From a virus (lineage: Duplodnaviria > Heunggongvirae > Uroviricota > Caudoviricetes): a DNA stretch of 18,947 bases. Positions within the stretch are counted from its first letter, which is position 1; every line of letters starts with the position of its first letter. The stretch spans positions 1 to 18,947 of the IMG/VR virus record IMGVR_UViG_2547132415_000019. One strand, written 5' to 3'. This document shows positions 1 to 14,941 of this stretch, piece after piece. The notes beneath the pieces are model-generated. The model saw only the letters and a list, made by a program, of their open reading frames with translations, was not told the DNA's origin and did no database searches. A program made the position numbers and the translations under genes.

Positions 1-1053
1 TTACGGGGTAATGCCAACCGCTGCCGCCACTTTGTCGCCACTTGGCAGCGTTGCCAGAGGGTTGAAACGGAGCGCCGTTTCCAGATGATCCGGTGCCAGA
101 TGTGCGTAACGCATCGTCATTTTTATATCGTGATGCCCGAGAATTTTTTGTAAGGCCAGGATGTTTCCACCCGACATCATAAAATGCGCCGCAAACGTAT
201 GACGCAGAACGTGTGTCAGTTGACCGCGAGGGAGCACGATAGACGTTTTTTCCATCACGGATAAAAATTGAAAATAGCAGTCTGTAAAGAAATTGAACCC
301 ATCAAGTGCCATAATCTCTTCGTAAAGCTCTTTACTGATGGGAATGCTTCTGTTTTTCTTCCCCTTCGTTCTGACAAAGGTAATTCGGTATTTAGTCACC
401 TGTGAACGGGTAAGATTTATTGCTTCTCGCCAGCGTGCGCCTGTGCTTAAGCATATCTTGACTACCAGTGCCAGAATTGGGTCCTGACGTTTGCAATCAG
501 CCAGCAATTCAACAATCTGTTCATGGGTAAGCCATGCCATCTCTTTTTCTGCGATGGTGAATTTTCGCATGTTCTCCAGTGGGTTCGGATACGACCATTC
601 GCCCAGGCGGGATAGTTCGCTAAAAACACTACTTAGATAGCTTTGCTCCAGGTTAACGGTGACCGGGCTTGCTCCTTTCTTCCATTTTTCGCTGAAGTAG
701 ATCTCTCCTGTCAGGCGTTTATCTCGATAGTGGGCAAACATTTTAGAGGTGAGATCGGTTGCAATGGGATTTCCCAGAGCGTCAACCATCAACAGCAATT
801 TGTCATAGACATGCTGCCCAGCCGTCAGAGATTTACCATGTAGTTTGAACCATAGCTCAACCACGTCTTTCAGTGTTCGACGATCCACTGATTCACCCAG
901 CCAGGGTTTTGCTTCGGTTTCTTCCATCGTGTGACGCTCAAAAGCCAATGCTTCACCCTTAGTTGCAAACTGCTTACGCACACGCCGCCCATTGCGCCCG
1001 GCGGGGTAGCATTCACAAATCCATTTACCTGTGTTGAGTTTTCGTACTGCCAT
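1..1053 (-). CDS. int: Tyrosine recombinase / phage integrase
   Basis: 350 aa ORF. C-terminal catalytic region has LTHVLRHTFA (His-x-x-Arg) and MRYAHL (catalytic Tyr). Sits at the prophage end next to the repressor. Confidence 0.9.
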   Translation of the reverse strand: MAVRKLNTGKWICECYPAGRNGRRVRKQFATKGEALAFERHTMEETEAKPWLGESVDRRTLKDVVELWFKLHGKSLTAGQHVYDKLLLMVDALGNPIATDLTSKMFAHYRDKRLTGEIYFSEKWKKGASPVTVNLEQSYLSSVFSELSRLGEWSYPNPLENMRKFTIAEKEMAWLTHEQIVELLADCKRQDPILALVVKICLSTGARWREAINLTRSQVTKYRITFVRTKGKKNRSIPISKELYEEIMALDGFNFFTDCYFQFLSVMEKTSIVLPRGQLTHVLRHTFAAHFMMSGGNILALQKILGHHDIKMTMRYAHLAPDHLETALRFNPLATLPSGDKVAAAVGITP

Positions 1054-1078: not shown

Positions 1079-1135
1079 AAATTTAACTGTATGTTTGAAC
1101 AGTGGTCAATGTTTAAAGATCTTCAATTAAACATT

Positions 1136-2476
1136 TCATTGGAGCAAGAAAACTTTTAAGGTGTTTTTGAATATTCTAACAGGGTCTTCTACACCTGCAT
1201 TTCCTTTTAAAATATGATAATCACTTATTTCAGCCCATCTGTTTTTTTCATCGTTTTCAGAAGGAAGTAAAGGAGAACCTTCTGGCATATATTTATAAGT
1301 TATACCAAATAATGCATAATAGTAGATGTTGATGTTATATTGATCTGTCTGATATGGGAGTCTATTAACACCGAAGAAATTGATTATTAATTGTGCATCT
1401 ATTTTATCTTCTACGTAGTTAAGGGCCAGTTCACGACCAAACGAATAAAGAATTACTGCAAGGGTTCGATAACAGCAATAGCCTGGTATAAATTTATTGC
1501 TGATTTCATTTTGAGATAAAATTTGATAAATTTCTAGATATCTTGATAAGGTTTCAACTTCCCGTAGCGACAAGCCTTTTAGTTCGATAAATTTTTGAAC
1601 TATATGAATACTACTTTCTCCAATTTCTTTTAGTCTTTCAGACTCGTTACATAGCATTCTAAAATGAGAGTTCGAAGCCAAAATTTTATCGTAATTGTTT
1701 TCAGTGAAAGTCACTGGCAGGCTGTAAGTGAATTTTATAAATTTATCAAGATATCTTTCTGAGTCAACACCTGCACCGTAAATATGATTTATTGATGCTT
1801 TCAATTGTGAGATGTTAGCAACTAACAAGAAGTTAAGATTTTCAGTGTCAAAAACATGTTTTATATTTTCGATGATAGAGATGGCAAAGCTTGGTTTACA
1901 ACGGTCAAGTTCGTCAATGATAATTGTTATTTTATTTTCGCTAGTTAGTTCAGCAAGTACTTCCTTGAGAGCAAGCAAATGTTTCTTTGCTTCAATATGA
2001 TCATCAAGCAGTGCTTCTACAGTACCATCTATAGCTGAGTTAGCCGCATCTTTAATAGCATCTTCGAATTCATCCGCAATATCATCTGCATTTTGTTTTA
2101 AAATCCACCCAGCGCCAGCTTTGAGTACAGTTTTAAGTCCAAATCTCAATGCTGGTAATGCCTTTGATATTAATTCCTTCTTTTCACTCTCTGGATATAA
2201 TGCAACTATTGCAGCCATTATAGTAAGTATGGGAGCATCATTATGATCTTCAGTAAATGCATCAATATATACTACTTTATGCCCAGATTCATTTTTTTCA
2301 ATCAATGCCGCTAATTTTTTTGAAAATTCGGTTTTACCGGTACCCCAGTCCCCATCGATAACAATAGGGGATATTTTTAAGGGGGACTCGAGTAAGCTTA
2401 TTATTTTTTCAGCAATGATTTTTCTATTATACTCATCTCTGTTTTCAAAAGTCATATCATTATTCATATGAAGCAA
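1136..2476 (-). CDS. KAP-family P-loop NTPase (cargo gene)
   Basis: 446 aa. Walker A GDWGTGKTEF; Walker B-like hydrophobic stretch ITIIIDELDRC; an Ala/Gly/Leu-rich segment between them (ALPALRFGLKTVLKAGAGWIL) as in KAP NTPases. Markedly AT-rich by eye compared with the phage core. Confidence 0.8.
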   Translation of the reverse strand: MLHMNNDMTFENRDEYNRKIIAEKIISLLESPLKISPIVIDGDWGTGKTEFSKKLAALIEKNESGHKVVYIDAFTEDHNDAPILTIMAAIVALYPESEKKELISKALPALRFGLKTVLKAGAGWILKQNADDIADEFEDAIKDAANSAIDGTVEALLDDHIEAKKHLLALKEVLAELTSENKITIIIDELDRCKPSFAISIIENIKHVFDTENLNFLLVANISQLKASINHIYGAGVDSERYLDKFIKFTYSLPVTFTENNYDKILASNSHFRMLCNESERLKEIGESSIHIVQKFIELKGLSLREVETLSRYLEIYQILSQNEISNKFIPGYCCYRTLAVILYSFGRELALNYVEDKIDAQLIINFFGVNRLPYQTDQYNINIYYYALFGITYKYMPEGSPLLPSENDEKNRWAEISDYHILKGNAGVEDPVRIFKNTLKVFLLQ

Positions 2477-2687: not shown

Positions 2688-3257
2688 TTAATAATTGACG
2701 ATCGCGCTTCTAATTTTTCCTATGATATCAATTTCATCTATTTTGCATTCAAAGGAACTGCTGCCGCCATCGACATTTAGACGACGTCCCGGCAGTCTTG
2801 TCAGATTCCTGATAGCAACCTCGCCATCAATATCAACGATCCACTTACCATCACGTACATCCTCATAATCCGAATCACAGATAAACTCTGATGCGCCATC
2901 GATCACAACAAAAGGTTTTTTTAGTTTTTCAGGCAAAAAGTTGTTGTCGAAAATGTAGTAACCATCAGGAAGTAGTTTTCCGCTTGATAAAATCTTCCTT
3001 TCGATCTCTTTTGTGTTTTCTTTTTGTGAACTTTCTTTTGAACCTTGCCCAGTAGTTAGCCACTCTAGCGACGTGCCGGTTTCAAGTGCACATTGGATTA
3101 CCCATTCTGCCGGGAATGAATCACGCATATAGCGCGTGGCTAAGGTGCTTTTAGAAATGCCCAAATGATCACACAAAGCTTGTCTTGTCTTGAAACCATA
3201 GGCTTCAACCATGCGCTCTATGGCCCCACGACCGCCTTTTTCCAAATTCATGGTCAC
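2688..3257 (-). CDS. cI: CI-type immunity repressor (phage 186 CI-like)
   Basis: 189 aa, transcribed divergently from the lytic operon. N-terminal region ([28 protein letters not shown]...[16 protein letters not shown]) resembles the 186 CI N-terminal domain as I recall it. GGAG about 6 nt upstream of the ATG on the minus strand. Confidence 0.8.
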
Positions 3258-4970: not shown

Positions 4971-5204
4971 ATGCGTAATATTGAAACCCTCACGACTAAA
5001 ACCGGACCGGATGACGCAGGGCTTAATATTTTACTGACAGAGGCTCGTCTGGAAGAACGCCGGGCAAGGGCTGAAGCAATGGCAGCTCGCCTTGATAGCC
5101 TGGCGTGTCATATCTCATCCCGTCAGCTAAACCACGTGGAAGCGGCAGAACTGCTGCGTGTGACTGCTGAAGCAATCCAGAACGAAGCGCAGGAGATCCA
5201 CTAA
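4971..5204 (+). CDS. Hypothetical early protein (about 77 aa, predicted helical/coiled)
   Basis: CAGGAGAA about 7 nt upstream of the ATG at 4971. Its stop overlaps the next start (TAATG). Confidence 0.55.
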   Translation: MRNIETLTTKTGPDDAGLNILLTEARLEERRARAEAMAARLDSLACHISSRQLNHVEAAELLRVTAEAIQNEAQEIH

Positions 5205-5431: not shown

Positions 5432-6285
5432 GCACCATCCTGAAATGGGCGGGAAATAAAACCGCCGTAATGTCCGAACTGAAAAAACATCTTCCTGCTG
5501 GTCCGCGACTAGTTGAACCTTTCGCGGGTTCCTGTGCTGTGATGATGGAGACGGATTATCCCTGCTATCTGGTTGCGGATATTAATCCTGATTTAATCAA
5601 CCTCTATAAAAAGGTTGCCGCTGATTGTGAATCGTTTATATCTCGCGCCAAAGTTTTATTTGAGATCGCAAACAGGGAGGTGGCTTATTACAACATAAGG
5701 CAGGAGTTTAATTACTCAACTGAAATTACTGATTTCATGAAAGCGGTATATTTCCTGTATCTCAATCGTCACGGTTACCGTGGGTTATGTCGCTATAACA
5801 AGAGCGGGCATTTCAACATTCCCTACGGTAATTATAAAAATCCGTATTTCCCTGAAAAAGAAATTCGCGCTTTTGCAGAAAAAGCCCAGCGAGCAACGTT
5901 TATCTGCGCCAGCTTTGATGAAACGCTGGCGATGTTGAAGGCGGGGGATGTGGTGTATTGCGATCCGCCTTATGACGGTACGTTTTCCGGCTATCACGCT
6001 GACGGCTTTACTGAAGATGACCAGTATCACCTGGCATCCGTTCTTGAACATCGGTCATCAGAAGGACATCCGGCCATTGTTTCTAACAGTGACACATCCC
6101 TGATCCGTTCGCTGTATCGCAATTTTACTCACCACTATATCAAGGTAAAACGCAGCATCGGCGCAGCAGCTGGTGAGAGTAAATCAGCAACAGAAATCAT
6201 TGCTGTTTCCGGACCGCGCTGCTGGGTGGGATTTGATTATTCGCGTGGCGTGGATAGTTCTGCCGTGTACGGAGTACGTGCATGA
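5428..6285 (+). CDS. dam: DNA adenine (N6) methyltransferase, Dam-like
   Basis: N-terminal SAM-binding region (LKWAGNK ... [10 protein letters not shown]) and catalytic DPPY motif (VYCDPPYDG). ATG at 5428 overlaps the upstream stop (ATGA) and its own stop overlaps the A start. Confidence 0.85.
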
Positions 6286-8696
6286 GCCATGCCGATATGA
6301 GCAACTGCTGCGGCTTTAACGAGGCTGCCGCATCGTTCTCATGGAACAGCCCGAAAAAGGCCATTAACCCTTATCTGGACCCGGCGGAAGTTGCGCCGGT
6401 TTCTGCGCTTTCAAACCTGATCACTCTGTACGCTGCCGATAACGAGCAGGAACAACTGCGCCGCGAGGCACTGAGTGATCAGGTCTGGGAGCGTTATTTC
6501 TTTAATGAATCCCGTGATCCTGTCCAACGCGAAATAGAGCAGGATAAGCTCATTAGCCGGGCAAAGTTGGCGCATGAGCAGCAGCGTTTTAACCCGGACA
6601 TGGTCATTCTGGCAGACGTCAGCGCCCAGCCCTCCCATATCAGCAAGCCGCTGATGCAACGTATTGAATACTTCAGCAGCCTGGGCAGGCCAAAGGCTTA
6701 TTCCCGCTATTTACGTGAGACGATTAAGCCATGTCTGGAACGACTGGAGCATGTACGCGACAGCCAGCTATCTGCATCTTTTCGTTTTATGGCAAGCCAT
6801 GTAGGGCTGGACGGCCTGCTGATTCTGCCTGAAATGAGTCAGGATCAGGTGAAACGCCTGTCTACCCTTGTCGCTGCGCATATGAGCATGTGCCTTGATG
6901 CAGCTTGTGGTGATTTGTATGCCACCGATGACGTTAAGCCAGAAGAAATCCGCAAGACATGGGAAAAGGTGGCAGCGGAAACCCTGCGTCTGGATGTCAT
7001 CCCGCCTGCGTTTGAGCAACTCCGCCGGAAAAGAAACCGCCGTAAACCCGTGCCCTATGAACTCATTCCGGGTTCGCTGGCGCGTATGTTGTGCGCCGAC
7101 TGGTGGTACCGGAAATTATGGAAAATGCGTTGCGAATGGCGGGAAGAGCAGTTGCGTGCTATCTGCCTGGTCAGCAAAAAAGCATCTCCCTATGTCAGCT
7201 ATGAAGCCGTGATGCATAAACGTGAGCAGCGCCGCAAGTCACTGGAGTTTTTCCGTTCTCATGAACTGGTGAACGAAGAGGGCGACACGCTGGATATGGA
7301 AGACGTGGTAAACGCCAGCAGCAGCAACCCGGCGCACCGCCGCAATGAGATGATGGCCTGTGTTAAAGGTCTGGAGCTTATCGCGGAAATGCGCGGTGAC
7401 TGCGCCGTTTTCTACACCATTACCTGTCCGTCACGTTTCCATTCCACGCTCAATAACGGCAGACCAAACCCAACTTGGACAAATGCGACGGTAAGACAAA
7501 GCAGCGATTATCTGGTCGGCATGTTTGCTGCATTTCGTAAGGCGATGCACAAAGCCGGGTTGCGCTGGTATGGCGTGCGGGTGGCTGAGCCGCATCATGA
7601 CGGTACAGTTCACTGGCACCTGTTGTGTTTCATGCGCAAAAAAGACCGCCGCGCCATTACTGCATTGTTGCGTAAGTTTGCCATCCGTGAAGACCGCGAG
7701 GAACTGGGTAATAACACTGGTCCACGCTTTAAATCTGAGCTGATAAACCCGCGCAAAGGAACGCCGACAAGCTACATCGCGAAATACATCAGTAAGAACA
7801 TTGACGGGCGTGGTCTGGCTGGCGAGATCAGCAAGGAAACGGGTAAATCCCTGCGTGATAACGCTGAATACGTTAATGCCTGGGCGTCTCTGCATCGTGT
7901 TCAGCAATTCCGCTTCTTTGGTATTCCGGGACGTCAGGCTTACCGTGAACTTCGCTTGCTGGCTGGTCAGGCGGCAAGGCAACAGGGTGACAAAAAAGCA
8001 GGTGCGCCGGTACTGGATAACCCGCGCCTTGATGCCATTCTGGCTGCTGCTGATGCTGGTTGTTTTGCCACCTACATCATGAAGCAGGGCGGCGTACTGG
8101 TTCCCCGCAAATATCACCTCATCAGAACCGCTTATGAAATCAACGAAGAGCCAACCGCCTATGGCGATCACGGTATTCGTATTTATGGCATCTGGTCACC
8201 CATTGCAGAGGGCAAGATCTGCACTCATGCAGTGAAGTGGAAAATGGTTCGTAAGGCCGTTGACGTTCAGGAGGCGGCAGCCGACCAGGGCGCTTGCGCC
8301 CCTTGGACTCGTGGCAATAACTGTCCCCTTGCTGAAAATTTGAACCAACAAGGGAAAGACAAATCAGCTGATGGGGATACCAGAACGGACATTACCCACA
8401 TGGATGACAAGGAGTTGCACGATTACCTGCACAGTATGAACAAAAAAGAGCGCCGGGAACTGGCTGCAAGGTTACGCCTGGTGAAACCGAAACGGCGTAG
8501 AGACTACAAACAGCGAATTACAGACCATCAACGACAGCAGCTCGTCTATGAACTGAAGTCCAGAGGATTTGATGGCAGCGAGAAAGAGGTCGATTTACTC
8601 CTTCGCGGCGGCAGTATTCCGTCAGGAGCAGGCCTGCGTGTCTTCTATCGGAACCAGCGTTTGCAGGAAGATGATAAGTGGCGGAACCTGTATTAA
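6282..8696 (+). CDS. A: Replication initiation endonuclease (P2 gpA-like rolling-circle protein)
   Basis: 804 aa. [12 protein letters not shown]-type tyrosine motif and HWHLL His motif as in P2 A-family proteins; position after the early operon. Confidence 0.85.
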
Positions 8697-8790
8697 TTAC
8701 GCGGGTTAACAATTCGTGCTCTTAATAATACCAGGCATATCAGGCTGATGAACGTAAAAAAACGTTTTACATCAGTAAGATTATCATATA

Positions 8791-8806
8791 CTGTAAATAT
8801 AAACAG
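8791..8806. promoter_or_regulatory. LexA (SOS) box CTGTAAATATAAACAG overlapping a sigma70-like promoter
   Basis: Exact CTGT-N8-ACAG with an AT-rich core. Upstream TTTACA (8766-8771) and TATACT (8787-8792) could be -35/-10. A second degenerate half-site (ACAG at 8818-8821) follows. Confidence 0.7.
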
Positions 8807-8849
8807 TGGTTATCTATACAGTATTGTTTGCGGTGTCATAGGAGGAAAG

Positions 8850-9038
8850 ATGCAGGACTATTTTTTGGAGTCTTTGAAGCTCCAGCGCATTGATTTTTTT
8901 CTTAAGCTTGTAGCGGCTAGTGAGTGTAGTGATGAAGAGAAGGGGCTGGCCCTGCAGTGGGTTTCTGAATTGACTGATGAACTCATGGCAAAAATCAGAA
9001 GCCACGAATACAACCGCTCAATGGATGTCATCAGCTGA
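8850..9038 (+). CDS. Small hypothetical protein, first gene of the SOS-controlled module (possible Tum-like N-terminal part)
   Basis: GGAGG 4-5 nt upstream of the ATG at 8850; 62 aa. The ORF-track start at 8748 would read through the promoter and LexA box, so it is unlikely. Confidence 0.5.
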   Translation: MQDYFLESLKLQRIDFFLKLVAASECSDEEKGLALQWVSELTDELMAKIRSHEYNRSMDVIS

Positions 9039-9048
9039 GGTGACTTTT

Positions 9049-9282
9049 ATGCGCATTGAAATAATGATCGATAAAGAGCAGAAGATTAGCCAGTCTACCC
9101 TGGACGCTCTGGAGTCCGAGCTTTACCGCAACCTGCAACCCATCTATCCCAAGACCGCTATCCGCATCCGTAAAGGGTCGGCAAACGGCGTTGAGCTGAG
9201 TGGCTTAAAGCTTGATGAAGACAAAAAGCGGGTGATGGAAATTATGCAACAGGTTTGGGAAGACGACAGCTGGCTGCACTAA
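9049..9282 (+). CDS. DinI-family protein (phage Tum/MsgA-like, SOS-associated)
   Basis: 77 aa starting MRIEIMIDKEQKISQSTLDALESELYRNLQ ... EDDSWL, matching the DinI fold pattern (MRIEV...L...EL..R......WE..D.W). GAGGTG upstream of the ATG. Confidence 0.8.
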   Translation: MRIEIMIDKEQKISQSTLDALESELYRNLQPIYPKTAIRIRKGSANGVELSGLKLDEDKKRVMEIMQQVWEDDSWLH

Positions 9283-9400
9283 GGAACGTTCCTGATGTAA
9301 GAACTTGAATCTGACGTCAGCAAGGTTGAACAACGAGAGTAGCGAGGCGTTAGCCATGGGTAAAAAAGACAGTAATCACCAGATTATTTATCGGGGCTAG

Positions 9401-9616
9401 GTGCTGGAACGTTTAACCCTTGGCGACTGGGTCTTCTTTCAACGCCCAAAGGAGTGTGGCGGAGGTTTTTGGTTGGGCCGCATCTATGAAGACTGCTTCT
9501 GGCTTGAGCTGGAATTCCCCGTTTCGCTATATGACGGCCTGGGGTTTTTGATGGAAGTCACTAGGGTAGAGCAGAGAAGTGATGAGGTTGACGCGAATTA
9601 TCCCCTGTTTGATTAA
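9401..9616 (+). CDS. Hypothetical small protein (71 aa, GTG start)
   Basis: ORF only; no recognisable motif. Confidence 0.35.
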   Translation: MLERLTLGDWVFFQRPKECGGGFWLGRIYEDCFWLELEFPVSLYDGLGFLMEVTRVEQRSDEVDANYPLFD

Positions 9617-9664: not shown

Positions 9665-10276
9665 ATGGATTTAGTCTTTAAAGTTCTGGCTTCGTTGGGT
9701 GGGGTGTCTTTTGTTGCATCTGGCATATTTGTTTGGATCGGGAAAGTTTATTTAGAAAGATATAAGTCGCGGCTAAACAAAGATATTGCTGAATTTCAAT
9801 CACAACTGAGTGCAACTAATGAAAGAATAAAGGCTAAGTTAGACAATTCTGTTTATGTAACGAAAGCGTATTTTGATAAGGAGTTATCAGCATATAGTCT
9901 CATTTGGAATTCGATGTTTGAAACCAGAGAAAGCGTGCTTAAGCTGAGGCCTGCGCTGGATCATGTTGACCCCAACGAACCATTTGAAGAGAGAAAATTT
10001 AGAAGGTTGAAAGTTTTTTCTGATGCATTTAACACTTTTGTTACAAGTGTTGAATCTAACAAACCGTTCATCTCACCAGAGGTTTATATAATCTTGGACC
10101 GTTTCCGGAAGGAATGCCTTTCAGAGTCAATATCGTTTAAGCATAGCGATCCAGAATTTGACGGGCAAAATTATTGGAAAGAGGCGGAGTTGAACCATAC
10201 AACCATCATCAAGCTTTTTGATGAGACGTGTGATGCAATTCGAGACAGGATGCACACATTAACTGTGGTTACGTAG
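9665..10276 (+). CDS. Single-pass membrane protein with N-terminal TM helix and coiled-coil-like region (cargo; function unknown)
   Basis: 203 aa. Residues about 5-27 are hydrophobic (VLASLGGVSFVASGIFVWIG). AT-rich. G-rich stretch upstream of the ATG. Confidence 0.65.
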   Translation: MDLVFKVLASLGGVSFVASGIFVWIGKVYLERYKSRLNKDIAEFQSQLSATNERIKAKLDNSVYVTKAYFDKELSAYSLIWNSMFETRESVLKLRPALDHVDPNEPFEERKFRRLKVFSDAFNTFVTSVESNKPFISPEVYIILDRFRKECLSESISFKHSDPEFDGQNYWKEAELNHTTIIKLFDETCDAIRDRMHTLTVVT

Positions 10277-12149: not shown

Positions 12150-13178
12150 CTAAATTTGATATCTCTCGAATTTTATAATTTCTTCACCGCTCCAATGATT
12201 AAATTCTTTCATTCTTTTTTGTAATGGTAATAATTCATTTTTCACAAATACCTTACTAGCTTTTTCTACATCCCCAAATCCCCCAACATTATTAGGCATT
12301 ATCCCCATCATCTGTGGCGGAACGCGATGTGCTGCCATCATGTCATCCCGGCTCACGTTCTTGATATTTAGAAACTCATCCTTCGCCGCAACTTCTGACA
12401 AAGGGATGATCTGAAGGCCGTCCTTTTTGCCGTTAGGCGAGTACATAAACAGGTTGCGGAAGTTACCCGGACCTTTGGCACTTTTCATTGCATTGCGGAG
12501 GTTGTTCACGTCCTCCTGGTTCTGCGCAGCATCGGTCATGTACATGATGAAGCCTGCATGACTACCGTTAATGTAATACTTGCGGCGGAACAGCGTGGCG
12601 GACTCATTGAGCAGGGCGGACGGAATGGCAGAAAGATAGCCGGGCAGGCCGTAGATCTCCTGGTTAATGTCCGGTTCCATCAGATGAAAAATGCTGCCTT
12701 TCGTGAACTGATACGGCTGGGTTGTCATACCGTATTGCACAAACCAGTAGGTATCCAGGTCTAACCCGCGTCGGGTGTATTTTGCCAGAGCAGGCTCAAG
12801 GGCGATAACTTCACCGAAGCGGTTCGTGCGTTTCTCCAGGTAGGCGTTACCAAATACCAGATAGTCCTGCACAAAACGTGAAAAAGCCTGCTGGCTGAGC
12901 AGCGGGTGAGGGATGTAGGTACTGGTCAGAATGTTGCATTTTACTGCAATCGGTGAGCTGTGATGCACGGCAGCGCGGAAGGTTCGTGCCAGTCCGTCAA
13001 AGCTGACGGGCGGCTCATACCAGCGGTCCATCTGTACGCATTCCACATAGTCCAGCAGTTCACGGCGGTCCAGAACAGGAACGGGATCGCCAAAGCTGAA
13101 TGCTTCGGCTGAAGTCTGGCTTTTATGCTTGAGCTGATTCGTCGCCGCAGCGCGGTTTTTCTTACTCTTTCCCATCAA
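12150..13178 (-). CDS. Q: Portal protein (P2 gpQ-like)
   Basis: 342 aa. Position and orientation, with its start overlapping the stop of the upstream terminase gene, are as in P2; N-terminal region resembles gpQ as recalled. Confidence 0.85.
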   Translation of the reverse strand: MMGKSKKNRAAATNQLKHKSQTSAEAFSFGDPVPVLDRRELLDYVECVQMDRWYEPPVSFDGLARTFRAAVHHSSPIAVKCNILTSTYIPHPLLSQQAFSRFVQDYLVFGNAYLEKRTNRFGEVIALEPALAKYTRRGLDLDTYWFVQYGMTTQPYQFTKGSIFHLMEPDINQEIYGLPGYLSAIPSALLNESATLFRRKYYINGSHAGFIMYMTDAAQNQEDVNNLRNAMKSAKGPGNFRNLFMYSPNGKKDGLQIIPLSEVAAKDEFLNIKNVSRDDMMAAHRVPPQMMGIMPNNVGGFGDVEKASKVFVKNELLPLQKRMKEFNHWSGEEIIKFERYQI

Positions 13179-14941
13179 AAAATCTCCACAATATTGCTGG
13201 TATTGGCGGATTCGCCCTGCAGCGGTTCGTTAAACAGTGCGTGCATCGTTGCCCAGGCCAGATCGGCGTGGCTGGCTTCTTCGCTGCGGCTGGCTTCATA
13301 GGTCGGGCGGTTGCCGCTGGCGGTGGTGGCGCGACGGATTGCCATGAATGACTGCGCAATGTCGGTGTGCCCGGCGTCAAACTCCAGACGGCGGTGGCTG
13401 ATAATGTCGTAGGCCTTGAGTACCAGGGCGTTTTTAACATTGGGGTTGTAGACAAACTCCCGGACGGCAGGAAAGAACGCTTTCACGTTCTCATAAACCC
13501 CGTGACCAACGCCGGTTGAGTCGATACCGATATAGGTCACGTTGTACTGTTCGGTGAGTTTTTTGATGGCGTCAGCCTGGGCGCGGAAGTCCATCCCGCG
13601 CCACTGGTGACGCTCAAGAATGCGGAACTTACCACCCGGCACGGCTGGCGGAGCCACCACCACGCATCCGGCACTGTCGCCGTTCTGCGTACCTTTTGCC
13701 GGGTCATAACCGATCCACACTTCGCGCCAGCCAAACGGGCGCAGGGCCAGTGCATGAAAGTCGGTCCAGACTTCCCAGCTGTCCACCATGCACGCCTGCA
13801 GTTCGCTGAGCGGGAACACGGACGCGAGATCGTCCACGAACTCGCACATCAGCAGGTTCTGGTATTCGTCCGGGCTGTACTCCATGCGTAGCTGGTCGAG
13901 GTCGAACAGGTTACAGCCGCCGCGCACCGCATCTTCCACGGTGACTATCTGGCGGTATTGCCCGTCTGCGCACAGCAGGCCGGGGGCCAAATTGCTGTGG
14001 GACAGGTCGATGTCCACCTTGTCAGCTTTGTTGCGTCCACGGTTGAACAGCGCACCGGACCAGAACGGATAAGCACTGTGGGTCAGGCTGGATGGCGTGG
14101 AAAAATAGGTTTGTCGCCATTTTTTGTGAATAGCCATCCCGGAAGCCACTTTGCGCAGCTCCTGGAATTTCGGTATCCAGAAATATTCATCCAGATACAG
14201 GTTGCCGTGATAACTCTGGGCCGTGCGGGCATTGGTGCCGAGGAAGTAAAGCGTGGCTCCGTTAGGAAGCACCATCGGATCGCCTTTTAGCTCCACCTCG
14301 ACTTCTTTGGCGAAGTCGATGATGTATTGTTTAAAGACGTGGGCCTGAGCCTTACTGGCAGAAAGGAAAATCTGGTTACGTCCGGTAAGCAGGGCGTCAA
14401 TCAGGGCTTCACGGGCAAAATAGAAGGTCGCGCCGATCTGGCGTGACTTCAGCAGGTTGCGGATGCGGTTGGTTTTTCCGGCTTCCCACCAGTGGCGCTG
14501 GTAGTTGAACATGGAGGAATGGAAGATTTCTTCCAGCTTCTCAATCTGCTCATCGGTGAAAACATTCTTTTCCGGCTGACGGTGTGGGCCTTTATTGCGG
14601 TTGGCGACGTTAGGGTTTAAGTCGGCTTCGTTGCCGCCATTGTTAAACTTGCCGATCCGCGCGTGGCGCTCAGACTGGCGCGCCAGCAGGTCAATCTCTT
14701 TGAAATCTTTCCCTTCTTTGTGCTCCTTCATAATGAGCTGGCAGTAGCGTGCGGCGGTGGTGAGCTGCATCTGATCCAGCGGCCCATAGTCACCCCACTT
14801 GTCGCGTTTTTTCCAGCTGTGAACGGTTGCAACTTTCTCGCCCAGCATTTCAGCAATGCGGGCTACGCGGTATCCCTGAAAGTACAGCAGCATGGCCTGC
14901 CGACGGGGATCGAGATCTGCGGGTGTCAGTGTGGTGTTCAT
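13175..14941 (-). CDS. P: Terminase large (ATPase) subunit (P2 gpP-like)
   Basis: 588 aa, same size class as P2 P; divergent from O; overlaps the Q start (ATGA). Confidence 0.85.
   Translation of the reverse strand: MNTTLTPADLDPRRQAMLLYFQGYRVARIAEMLGEKVATVHSWKKRDKWGDYGPLDQMQLTTAARYCQLIMKEHKEGKDFKEIDLLARQSERHARIGKFNNGGNEADLNPNVANRNKGPHRQPEKNVFTDEQIEKLEEIFHSSMFNYQRHWWEAGKTNRIRNLLKSRQIGATFYFAREALIDALLTGRNQIFLSASKAQAHVFKQYIIDFAKEVEVELKGDPMVLPNGATLYFLGTNARTAQSYHGNLYLDEYFWIPKFQELRKVASGMAIHKKWRQTYFSTPSSLTHSAYPFWSGALFNRGRNKADKVDIDLSHSNLAPGLLCADGQYRQIVTVEDAVRGGCNLFDLDQLRMEYSPDEYQNLLMCEFVDDLASVFPLSELQACMVDSWEVWTDFHALALRPFGWREVWIGYDPAKGTQNGDSAGCVVVAPPAVPGGKFRILERHQWRGMDFRAQADAIKKLTEQYNVTYIGIDSTGVGHGVYENVKAFFPAVREFVYNPNVKNALVLKAYDIISHRRLEFDAGHTDIAQSFMAIRRATTASGNRPTYEASRSEEASHADLAWATMHALFNEPLQGESANTSNIVEIF

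Follow-up and report, generated by a model that had tools for sequence, protein, structure and literature searches.

Positions 8766-9282 of the viral DNA analyzed here most likely form the SOS operon of a Fels-2-like prophage of the P2/186 family, in which LexA controls a small antirepressor, TumA; we put the probability of this reading at about 90%. The DNA analyzed (hereafter, "the window") is 18,947 nucleotides long and covers part of the prophage only. In the undamaged lysogen, the operon would be off, its promoter, which resembles p95 of phage 186, being blocked by host LexA on two overlapping boxes that extend over the -10 hexamer and roughly the first 20 nt of the transcript. DNA damage would bring about RecA-stimulated self-cleavage of LexA and free the promoter, from which one transcript would yield two small proteins, TumA and TumB. 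TumA would bind the 186-type repressor CI, CI would no longer hold the lytic promoter, and the lytic operon (apl, cII and the replication genes) would come on, inducing the prophage without cleavage of CI. Such a switch is already known, and reading the window in this way is correct but not new: in biological terms the finding contributes nothing further, since others have worked out the mechanism for 186, PSP3 and Fels-2 and have confirmed it genetically for an identical protein in DuoHS, a prophage of E. coli HS. The features concerned are listed in Table 1.

Table 1. Predicted elements of the tum operon, and the cI gene, with their positions in the window
Feature	Position	Strand	Basis
cI: 186-type immunity repressor, presumed TumA target	2688..3257	-	Pfam, PDB match
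-35 hexamer TTTACA, putative tum promoter	8766..8771	+	read from sequence; inferred
-10 hexamer TACTGT, putative (alternative TATACT, 8787-8792)	8789..8794	+	within LexA box 1
LexA box 1, TACTGTAAATATAAACAGTG	8789..8808 (core 8791-8806)	.	matrix score, conservation
LexA box 2, CAGTGGTTATCTATACAGTA	8804..8823 (core GTGG-N8-ACAG, 8806-8821)	.	matrix score, conservation
Shine-Dalgarno sequence AGGAGG of tumA	8840..8845	+	read from sequence
tumA: 62-aa antirepressor (TumA type), predicted helical hairpin	8850..9038	+	homology, profiles, AlphaFold2
Shine-Dalgarno sequence GAGGTG of tumB, overlapping the tumA stop codon	9037..9042	+	read from sequence
tumB: 77-aa DinI-family protein	9049..9282	+	Pfam DinI
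Conserved stem-loop and box GGTTGAACAACGAG-N6-CGAGGCGTTAG	9285..9353 (stem-loop 9285-9327, box 9324-9353)	+	alignment folding

Predicted promoter and double LexA operator

An earlier note on this DNA had pointed to an exact LexA consensus overlapping a plausible -10 hexamer, and the site holds up on reading, on matrix scoring, on conservation and by its agreement with the p95 hexamer of phage 186. The core of box 1, CTGTAAATATAAACAG, is an exact CTGT-N8-ACAG. TTTACA lies 17 nt upstream of TACTGT, which box 1 overlaps, and TACTGT is the very hexamer annotated as the -10 of p95 in the phage 186 record NC_001317, where it lies inside the annotated LexA site. The layout of p95 (TTCACA-18-TACTGT) is also that of the window's TTTACA-17-TACTGT. 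A strict sigma-70 consensus scan did not call the tum promoter, because TACTGT matches only three of the six consensus positions.

Could the LexA-like sequence be a palindrome that arose by chance in AT-rich intergenic DNA, with the operon expressed constitutively or from an upstream lytic transcript? The uncalled consensus promoter fits this alternative, and so does the one-mismatch form of CTGT-N8-ACAG, which is no commoner in the window than expected (6 found versus 6.5). Exact matches, on the other hand, number two in 18.9 kb against 0.20 expected from 200 dinucleotide-preserving shuffles, an excess of about 10-fold. The scoring with a LexA position weight matrix that the earlier note had proposed as a check was carried out and gave 23.6-24.1 bits for box 1, which exceeds the best score of every shuffle of the window (n = 200; median 10.0, 95th percentile 14.3, maximum 17.7); these bit values, from a matrix of 27-29 E. 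coli LexA sites, are approximate. The box is also kept in place across species. We compared 33 loci with a tumA homologue from different Enterobacterales species, and in 31 of them a LexA box scoring 18 bits or more lies no further than 100 nt upstream of that homologue; one of the other two is cut by a contig end and one is a decayed copy. Across the loci, CTGT and (A/C)CAG are constant while the 8-nt spacer varies. Together with the published lexA(Ind-) and lexA-null phenotypes of near-identical prophages, described below, these observations leave a chance palindrome with practically no credibility, and for the predicted box 1 we regard the question of chance as settled by conservation across species.

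The operator as a whole differs from its earlier description: the box first described is real, but the operator appears to be double, not single. The core of the second box shares one base with that of the first, the two 20-mers lying 15 nt apart. Box 2 scores 14.9 bits with a matrix that leaves out colicin sites and 16.9 bits with one that includes them, against the shuffle maximum of 17.7, and its left half is poor, with GTGG in place of CTGT. In 21-22 of the 33 loci, or about two thirds of relatives, it follows box 1 at a distance of exactly 15 nt, and the same register is seen in DuoHS, Cartapus, RE-2010, SopEphi and Fels-2, all of which also keep the TTTACA -35. Substitutions in both boxes fall mostly within the 8-nt spacers across the 33 loci. 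Since about a third of relatives are without box 2, it is not essential.

The operator of the colicin E1 gene (cea) on ColE1 likewise consists of two LexA boxes that share one core base in the same register, and its box 2, like that of the window, joins a GTGG left half to a perfect ATACAGTA right half. It agrees with the window's operator at 29 of 35 bases and with that of Fels-2 at 31 of 35, and both the ColE1 and the window operators lie over, or just downstream of, the -10. Unlike the window's operator, that of ColE1 is plasmid-borne and drives a toxin and lysis operon; the likeness is one of architecture. In ColE1, both boxes are bound by LexA and induction is late. By analogy with the colicin operators, box 2 probably tightens repression and delays induction here, and LexA would be expected to occupy both predicted boxes.

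A split Tum: tumA and tumB

Downstream of the operator come a 62-aa ORF (hereafter, ORF62 or tumA) and a DinI-family ORF, as the earlier note had described. The Shine-Dalgarno sequence of tumA is kept among relatives as AGGAGG or GGAGGG. A 96-aa ORF from 8748, called mechanically, was rejected as an overcall; its start would precede the promoter.

TumA is 100% identical to ECHS_RS04495, the "tum" of the E. coli HS prophage DuoHS, and 97% identical to STM2728 of Fels-2. In DuoHS, deletion of ECHS_RS04495, or a lexA(Ind-) allele, abolishes induction by mitomycin C (PMC12055606). The relationship to phage 186 is far more distant, with an identity of about 20% between ORF62 and the N-terminal part of 186 Tum. 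Profiles were needed to detect this homology because pairwise BLASTP found no similarity of ORF62 to 186 Tum or to PSP3 TumA. In comparisons of PHROG profiles, ORF62 matches phrog_698 at 5.9e-38 and phrog_1993, the PSP3 TumA family, at 0.002 (residues 7-48), whereas residues 1-70 of 186 Tum match phrog_698 at 5.9e-6 (residues 6-44); phrog_8554 is matched by both. The cross-matches between ORF62 and the N-terminal half of Tum are thus reciprocal, and they are in register. An hhalign comparison of ORF62 with Tum 1-70 gives an E-value of 3e-4 and aligns columns 4-43 with 4-43, in register. At the level of these profiles, and with modest E-values, ORF62 is distantly homologous both to PSP3 TumA and to the N-terminal half of 186 Tum.

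AlphaFold2 models TumA as two helices, 2-23 and 28-61, with a pLDDT of 89. Its predicted fold is uninformative on mechanism, because a Foldseek search with the model returned generic helical hairpins only (best E about 1). A PDB sequence search with ORF62 found no relative, and ORF62 has no family in Pfam or PADLOC. A phmmer search of TumA against 1.8 billion representative proteins returned 67 clusters at E <= 0.001, nearly all of them short stand-alone proteins, and recovered no fusion in the style of 186 Tum.

TumB matches the whole of the Pfam DinI profile (PF06183), scoring 86.1 bits where the cut-off is 24.2 (E 2e-24), and the E. coli DinI structure 1ghh at 2e-9. It is 86% identical to the DinI-like protein of DuoHS and 43% identical to residues 71-145 of 186 Tum, in agreement with the statement in the earlier note that the C-terminus of Tum is DinI-like. 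The tumA stop codon at 9036-9038 and the new start at 9049 give two ORFs, rather than the single polypeptide of 186 Tum; the split form, as in PSP3 and Fels-2, is still counted as tum (PMC3121763). Only about half of the tumA loci have an intact tumB, the gene being frequently absent or disrupted. Comparison of the loci indicates that tumA is the conserved core of the module and that tumB is not needed for the switch. TumB is probably an accessory DinI homologue that tunes the activity of the RecA filament. The antirepressor role that had been suggested for the products of 8850-9282 stays with the 62-aa protein and does not extend to the DinI-like one.

The reverse emphasis, in which the operon is mainly a prophage DinI module tuning the host SOS response and ORF62 is unrelated or a non-functional leader peptide, draws on the annotation. 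The DinI ORF alone has a curated family match; ORF62 is a "hypothetical protein" in RefSeq, often with a false 5' extension, and of "unknown function" in PHROGs, and BLASTP is blind to its relationship with Tum. LexA-controlled dinI genes are, moreover, known in Gifsy prophages (PMC3121763). We nonetheless consider this emphasis very improbable, given that of the two genes it is ORF62 that is conserved and the DinI gene that tends to be absent or disrupted, that the in-register profile matches tie ORF62 to the N-terminal half of Tum, and that DuoHS is no longer induced when nothing but the identical gene is deleted.

A conserved stem-loop with an adjoining box is placed 3' of tumB, or 3' of tumA where tumB is absent. 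In an alignment of 14 loci the stem-loop has 17 pairs, six of them with compensatory changes, and it has no T-run. A strict terminator scan gave nothing beyond a weak hairpin spanning the tumA/tumB junction, one that we regard as chance, and Rfam at gathering thresholds had no match in the window.

The CI repressor and the route of induction

CI belongs to the 186 type. It matches Pfam Phage_CI_repr (3e-33) and Phage_CI_C (6e-29), is 37% identical to 186 CI and matches the PDB structures 2fjr, at 9e-33, and 2fkd. Peptidase_S24, as in cleavable repressors of the lambda type, was not detected in CI at E-values up to 0.01. For a CI of the 186 type without S24, an antirepressor route is therefore to be expected, rather than repressor cleavage. 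Lambda-like, RecA-stimulated self-cleavage of the repressor, with the LexA operon as an accessory, is the default model for SOS-inducible phages and otherwise has nothing in its favor here; against the families and structures that CI matches, and the block to DuoHS induction by deletion of tum alone (PMC12055606), it is very improbable. The type of CI, the homology to Tum and the DuoHS genetics on an identical TumA instead support the proposal of the earlier note, that DNA damage induces the prophage through an antirepressor and not through RecA-mediated cleavage.

Work on other relatives is in keeping with an antirepressor route. For 186 Tum, binding to CI and the prevention of operator binding are known biochemically (Shearwin 1998, cited in PMC3121763). 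For Salmonella LT2, PMC8072944 and PMC3121763 report that a lexA null is lethal because of Fels-2. STM2727 is induced up to 14.8-fold by mutagen (PMC2225428); by numbering this is the DinI-like gene of Fels-2, which the phage record labels STM2726.1.

That TumA would bind the particular CI of this prophage is an extrapolation, because the C-terminal domain of CI is only ~55% identical to that of DuoHS CI, with the N-terminal domain identical. Across 28 loci, the mean pairwise identity is 0.83 for TumA, 0.66 for the N-terminal domain of CI and 0.40 for its C-terminal domain, and TumA divergence shows no correlation with that of either CI domain (Spearman -0.01 and -0.07). Co-variation of TumA with one CI domain, which would mark the binding site, was rejected, as neither domain correlates.

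The same figures would suit a TumA that acts in trans over a broad range, with cross-induction of heteroimmune P2/186-like prophages or satellites as its main effect. A Pantoea locus pairs a TumA of this type (84% identical) with a 186-like CI, and the Gifsy and Fels-1 prophages are known to make antirepressors that act in trans (PMC3121763). However, TumA could be held constant for other reasons, for example because the CI surface that it contacts is itself conserved, and the N-terminal half of 186 Tum is very different, which implies some specificity in the wider family. We judge a broad range possible though on balance unlikely, and it extends the LexA-controlled antirepressor switch more than it replaces it.

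Genomic setting, relatives and significance

The operon directly follows gpA (6282-8696; Pfam Phage_GPA 1e-127) in what is a Peduoviridae prophage. Gene A flanks it on one side and the cos/portal end on the other, its transcription runs away from A, and the order is that of 186, so the equivalence of position claimed earlier is borne out. The reverse-strand ORFs at 12150-14941 were assigned by place: they occupy the portal and terminase places of DuoHS and WP8-S17-ESBL-05. Among E. coli genomes, WP8-S17-ESBL-05 comes nearest to the window in the 586-bp module, although its cargo genes differ from those of the window.

DuoHS and Fels-2 share with the window gpA, the double LexA box, the 62-aa gene and the DinI-like gene, as well as a nearly identical promoter and operator and the same type of CI; the cargo genes on both flanks differ, and are here a KAP NTPase and ShosTA. 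PSP3 has the same split arrangement of tumA (~60 aa) and a DinI-like tumB behind a perfect LexA box and after a gpA homologue, and the GenBank note on its tumA reads "UV induction of prophage". Unlike the window, PSP3 has a single LexA box, and its TumA, in phrog_1993, is tied to ORF62 at the profile level only. Phage 186 resembles the window in its LexA box over a TACTGT -10, in the place of the operon after gene A and in a 186-type CI that is not cleaved. Its Tum, like the window's pair of proteins, has an N-terminal antirepressor part and a DinI-like part, the latter also being made separately from internal starts; in 186, however, the two parts are fused (146 aa), the box is single, and a t95a terminator and orf97 lie downstream. 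Beyond this family, Gifsy-1/2/3, Fels-1 and AntC of N15 likewise set a small LexA-repressed antirepressor against a non-cleavable repressor, in an operon that also contains a dinI homologue (PMC3121763). The Gifsy and Fels-1 prophages differ from the window in that dinI comes first, in being lambdoid and in using other families of repressor and antirepressor.

A third LexA box, at 1085-1104, lies inside a predicted promoter directly upstream of int. The predicted start of this promoter falls inside a putative terminator hairpin, which would shield int from transcription coming from cI and the cargo genes. A degenerate DNA pattern for the int-side box proved too loose in a scan of IMG/VR and returned unrelated contigs, and the searchable literature yielded no account of an int promoter under SOS control in P2-like phages. 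We tentatively suggest, while leaning slightly against it, that the prophage carries its own SOS regulon of two nodes: the tumA operon, in which a high damage threshold may result from the double operator and a broad-range TumA may switch on heteroimmune relatives, and a LexA-repressed int promoter. Synthesis of Int would then be confined to the times when the prophage has to excise.

Of 5426 complete E. coli genomes, 1126, or about one fifth, carry the module. It sets when very common prophages of E. coli, Salmonella and Klebsiella leave the chromosome, yet the SOS inducibility of such prophages is invisible in annotation, because TumA is labelled hypothetical or of unknown function. The practical value of the analysis is thus the annotation of the 62-aa antirepressor. 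The double operator, the constancy of TumA against a diverging CI, and the LexA box at int could in turn refine the view of induction thresholds and excision.

The LexA operator of the tum promoter

The earlier note had read 8760-9282 as an SOS-inducible antirepressor switch and placed an exact LexA consensus match at 8791-8806. That match, the core of what we call box 1, is confirmed: the window holds two exact CTGT-N8-ACAG sequences, where shuffles that preserve dinucleotides predict 0.20. With a single mismatch tolerated, no enrichment is seen in the window, and the bare pattern is therefore only moderately informative. Scored with a weight matrix, the check that the earlier note had proposed, box 1 reaches 23.6-24.1 bits, versus a median of 10.0 and a maximum of 17.7 for the best site per shuffle (n = 200), these absolute values being approximate; the matrix was built from 27-29 E. 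coli LexA sites of published compilations. Beside these scores, a chance palindrome is a weak explanation of box 1.

The box also lies over a plausible -10, as had been claimed. TACTGT (8789-8794) stands 17 nt past TTTACA (8766-8771), the same layout as the 186 SOS promoter p95, annotated in GenBank as TTCACA-18 nt-TACTGT with the LexA site beginning on that TACTGT, though a strict consensus promoter scan makes no call for TTTACA-17-TACTGT. A second box (box 2), overlooked in the earlier note, begins 15 nt past box 1, so that the two 16-bp cores have one base in common. Its score is 14.9 bits when colicin sites are left out of the matrix and 16.9 bits when they are included, and between them the boxes span the -10 and roughly 20 bases at the start of the transcript. 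The colicin E1 operator of ColE1 has the same double-box register; we found it at 5061-5095 of ColE1, 45 nt 5' of an ORF starting METAVAYYKDG, which we take to be the start of colicin E1, and it is identical to the window at 29 of 35 bases and to the Salmonella prophage Fels-2 at 31 of 35. At the colicin double operator, LexA occupies both boxes and induction is late.

Conservation was assessed in 33 loci encoding a TumA relative, with one genome per species searched, spanning Escherichia, Citrobacter, Klebsiella, Enterobacter, Serratia, Pantoea, Erwinia, Tatumella, and others. In 31 of the 33, a LexA box scoring 18 bits or more is present no further than 100 nt 5' of the tumA start codon; one of the remaining two ends at a contig edge, and the other has neither a box nor an intact tumA ORF. 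CTGT and (A/C)CAG are conserved across the loci and the spacers are variable. In 21-22 loci box 2 keeps the exact +15 nt offset, with a single box in the other 10: the double form occurs in DuoHS (the E. coli HS prophage), Cartapus, RE-2010, SopEphi, and Fels-2, and the single form in phages 186 and PSP3. We found no description of a double box at tum promoters in the searchable literature, a scope that does not include Bunny et al. 2002.

The tum genes and the elements 3' of them

The 62-aa ORF (ORF62, the tumA product) and the DinI-family gene (tumB) are present downstream of the operator as described earlier. TumB is 43% identical to 186 Tum residues 71-145 and matches the E. coli DinI structure 1ghh, bearing out the earlier note's statement that the Tum C-terminus is DinI-like. 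BLASTP detects no similarity of ORF62 to 186 Tum or PSP3 TumA. In profile searches, ORF62 matches phrog_698 (5.9e-38), phrog_8554 (1e-8), and, at residues 7-48, the PSP3 TumA family phrog_1993 (0.002), and the same families are matched by 186 Tum 1-70 (phrog_1993, 1.5e-23; phrog_8554, 3e-12; phrog_698, 5.9e-6, residues 6-44). An hhalign comparison of 29 TumA sequences with Tum 1-70 gives an E of 3e-4 and pairs columns 4-43 with 4-43. At the level of profiles, ORF62 is thus connected in register with 186 Tum and PSP3 TumA, and the PSP3 record has the same split into tumA ("similar to 5' end 186 tum; UV induction of prophage") and tumB. An AlphaFold2 model of ORF62 is a helical hairpin (pLDDT 89), for which we found no informative structural neighbour and no solved relative.

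In a survey of 32 tumA loci (from the set L007-L039, with tumA at ~10001-10186 in each), about half have an intact tumB, 4-5 a disrupted or truncated one (remnants with a stop or frameshift in L010, L024, L038, and L030; a truncated copy in L021), and about 11 none. As tumB is so often lost or broken, tumA is the core and tumB is accessory; the rival reading of the operon as a DinI-only module is weak. The 67 clusters (50% identity) returned by an exhaustive phmmer search for TumA relatives are almost all stand-alone proteins of 50-100 aa.

Many database entries lengthen tumA at its 5' end to 84-101 aa, so that the gene call crosses its own promoter, and in the window we rejected a mechanical 96-aa ORF from 8748 as an overcall whose start would precede the promoter. 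For ORF62-type antirepressors RefSeq gives "hypothetical protein", PHROGs lists phrog_698 under "unknown function", and one UniRef entry reads "Levan regulatory protein". A Pantoea stewartii prophage carries this TumA type together with a 186-like CI.

Directly 3' of tumB, or of tumA where tumB is missing, is a conserved stem-loop of 17 pairs, 6 of which show compensatory changes (14 loci), with variable cargo genes 3' of it. The element has no Rfam match; it may be the left boundary of a cargo hot spot or regulate read-through by the SOS transcript. The phrog_2100 gene beyond it has an in-frame amber at codon 15 in the window (TAG 9398-9400; Gln in Cartapus), leaving open only a 71-aa GTG-started remnant.

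Prophage layout and a LexA box upstream of int

The window contains a P2/186-family (Peduoviridae) prophage with its genes in prophage order (see table). Among phage records, Escherichia phage Cartapus is the closest (97.6%). Of 5426 complete E. coli genomes, 1126 carry the 586-bp tum module.

Features of the window
Feature	Position	Strand	Remarks
int	1-1053	-	
int-side LexA-like box	1085-1104		AACTGTATGTTTGAACAGTG; exact CTGT-N8-ACAG at 1087-1102
KAP-family P-loop NTPase	1136-2476	-	cargo gene between cI and int; matches PADLOC candidate defence family PDC-S20, 1e-171
cI	2688-3257	-	
CII (CP76) homologue and other early genes	between cI and gene A	rightward	
Replication gene A	6282-8696	rightward	
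Box 1	8789-8808		TACTGTAAATATAAACAGTG; core 8791-8806, CTGTAAATATAAACAG
Box 2	8804-8823		CAGTGGTTATCTATACAGTA
tumA (ORF62)	8850-9038	+	62 aa; AGGAGG at 8840-8845
tumB	9049-9282	+	Pfam DinI 2e-24
Stem-loop and invariant box	9285-9353	+	GGTTGAACAACGAG-N6-CGAGGCGTTAG; without T-run
phrog_2100 small conserved gene	9356-9616	+	86 aa in phage Cartapus
203-aa protein gene	9665-10276	+	phrog_26391 match, family of unknown function
Cargo region	after tum operon, before two reverse-strand ORFs		
ShosTA (Shosta) two-gene anti-phage system	10586-12125	+	in cargo region between tum operon and portal gene
Two ORFs	12150-14941	-	in portal/terminase slots of DuoHS and strain WP8-S17-ESBL-05; placed by position only
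Rightward ORFs	past the 12150-14941 pair	+	in head-gene slots of DuoHS and WP8-S17-ESBL-05; placed by position only

The ShosTA components are a phosphoribosyltransferase-like ShosT (3.6e-14) and a DprA-like ShosA (2.8e-70). The 203-aa protein has a sub-threshold Pfam match to the tRNA-binding arm (E 0.009); in WP8-S17-ESBL-05, a 612-nt gene, equated with it by position, is called "valyl-tRNA synthetase" in RefSeq, probably a misannotation. In relatives, the slot of the KAP NTPase is taken by a DUF4041 protein, by a 63-aa signal-peptide protein, or by other genes (123-589 aa), and this variability marks the cI-int slot as a cargo hot spot.

A third LexA-like box (~20 bits), holding the only exact CTGT-N8-ACAG in the window besides box 1, makes up the 17 nt between the hexamers of a near-consensus minus-strand promoter (TTGACC, 1109-1104; TTAAAT, 1086-1081). 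Next on that strand come a hairpin (1078-1059), a T-run, and, at 1053, the int ATG, with the int Shine-Dalgarno within the hairpin's 3' arm. Every one of the 80 IMG/VR contigs encoding this Int type has the box at the same place (15.7-26.2 bits; 25 distinct upstream variants); in these contigs the spacers vary, the hairpin shows compensatory changes, and the gene upstream of the hairpin is freely variable. DuoHS has the same box, promoter, and hairpin layout; in prophages with other Int types, int abuts cI and we found no LexA box. Because the predicted transcription start falls within the hairpin's 5' arm, we infer that int transcripts made from it would escape a terminator that would stop the cI-cargo transcript. 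The layout suggests an SOS-controlled int promoter with its start point inside a terminator, of which we found no description in searchable papers.

CI and the probable induction pathway

The HTH and C-terminal domains of CI, the immunity repressor and presumed TumA target, are of the 186 type; the protein shows 37% identity to 186 CI and matches 186 CI structures, and a domain search found no S24 peptidase domain in it. In E. coli HS, mitomycin C no longer induces after deletion of "tum" or in a lexA(Ind-) background (the Phollow study, PMC12055606). That "tum" is ECHS_RS04495, a 62-aa gene adjoining a DinI-like gene, and its product is 100% identical to ORF62. Induction through repressor cleavage is a weak alternative to the antirepressor switch. 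In Fels-2, STM2728 is 97% identical to ORF62, and a mutagen induces STM2727 up to 14.8-fold, placing it among the LexA-regulon genes with the strongest response (PMC2225428). By numbering, STM2727 is the Fels-2 DinI-like gene, which the phage record labels STM2726.1.

LexA on box 1, and probably on box 2, would block the tum promoter, as sequence and conservation indicate and published lexA genetics support. DNA damage would lead to LexA self-cleavage and tumA-tumB transcription, a step shown for the Fels-2 operon. TumA would then bind and inactivate CI; biochemistry for this exists only for 186 Tum and genetics for the identical DuoHS protein, and we infer the same for the window's CI. The lytic operon would switch on, following established 186 biology, and TumB would tune RecA activity, as its DinI homology and the 186 record's note "modulates SOS induction" suggest.

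The reading as an SOS antirepressor switch is correct and already known. Modest novelty may lie in the conservation of the double operator, the frequent loss of tumB, and the constancy of TumA while CI diverges. Across 28 loci, mean pairwise identity is 83% for TumA, 66% for the CI N-terminal domain, and 40% for the CI C-terminal domain, and TumA divergence shows no correlation with that of the CI domains (Spearman -0.01 and -0.07). These comparisons suggest that TumA recognises a conserved feature of the 186-type CI family, and it may act across immunity types.
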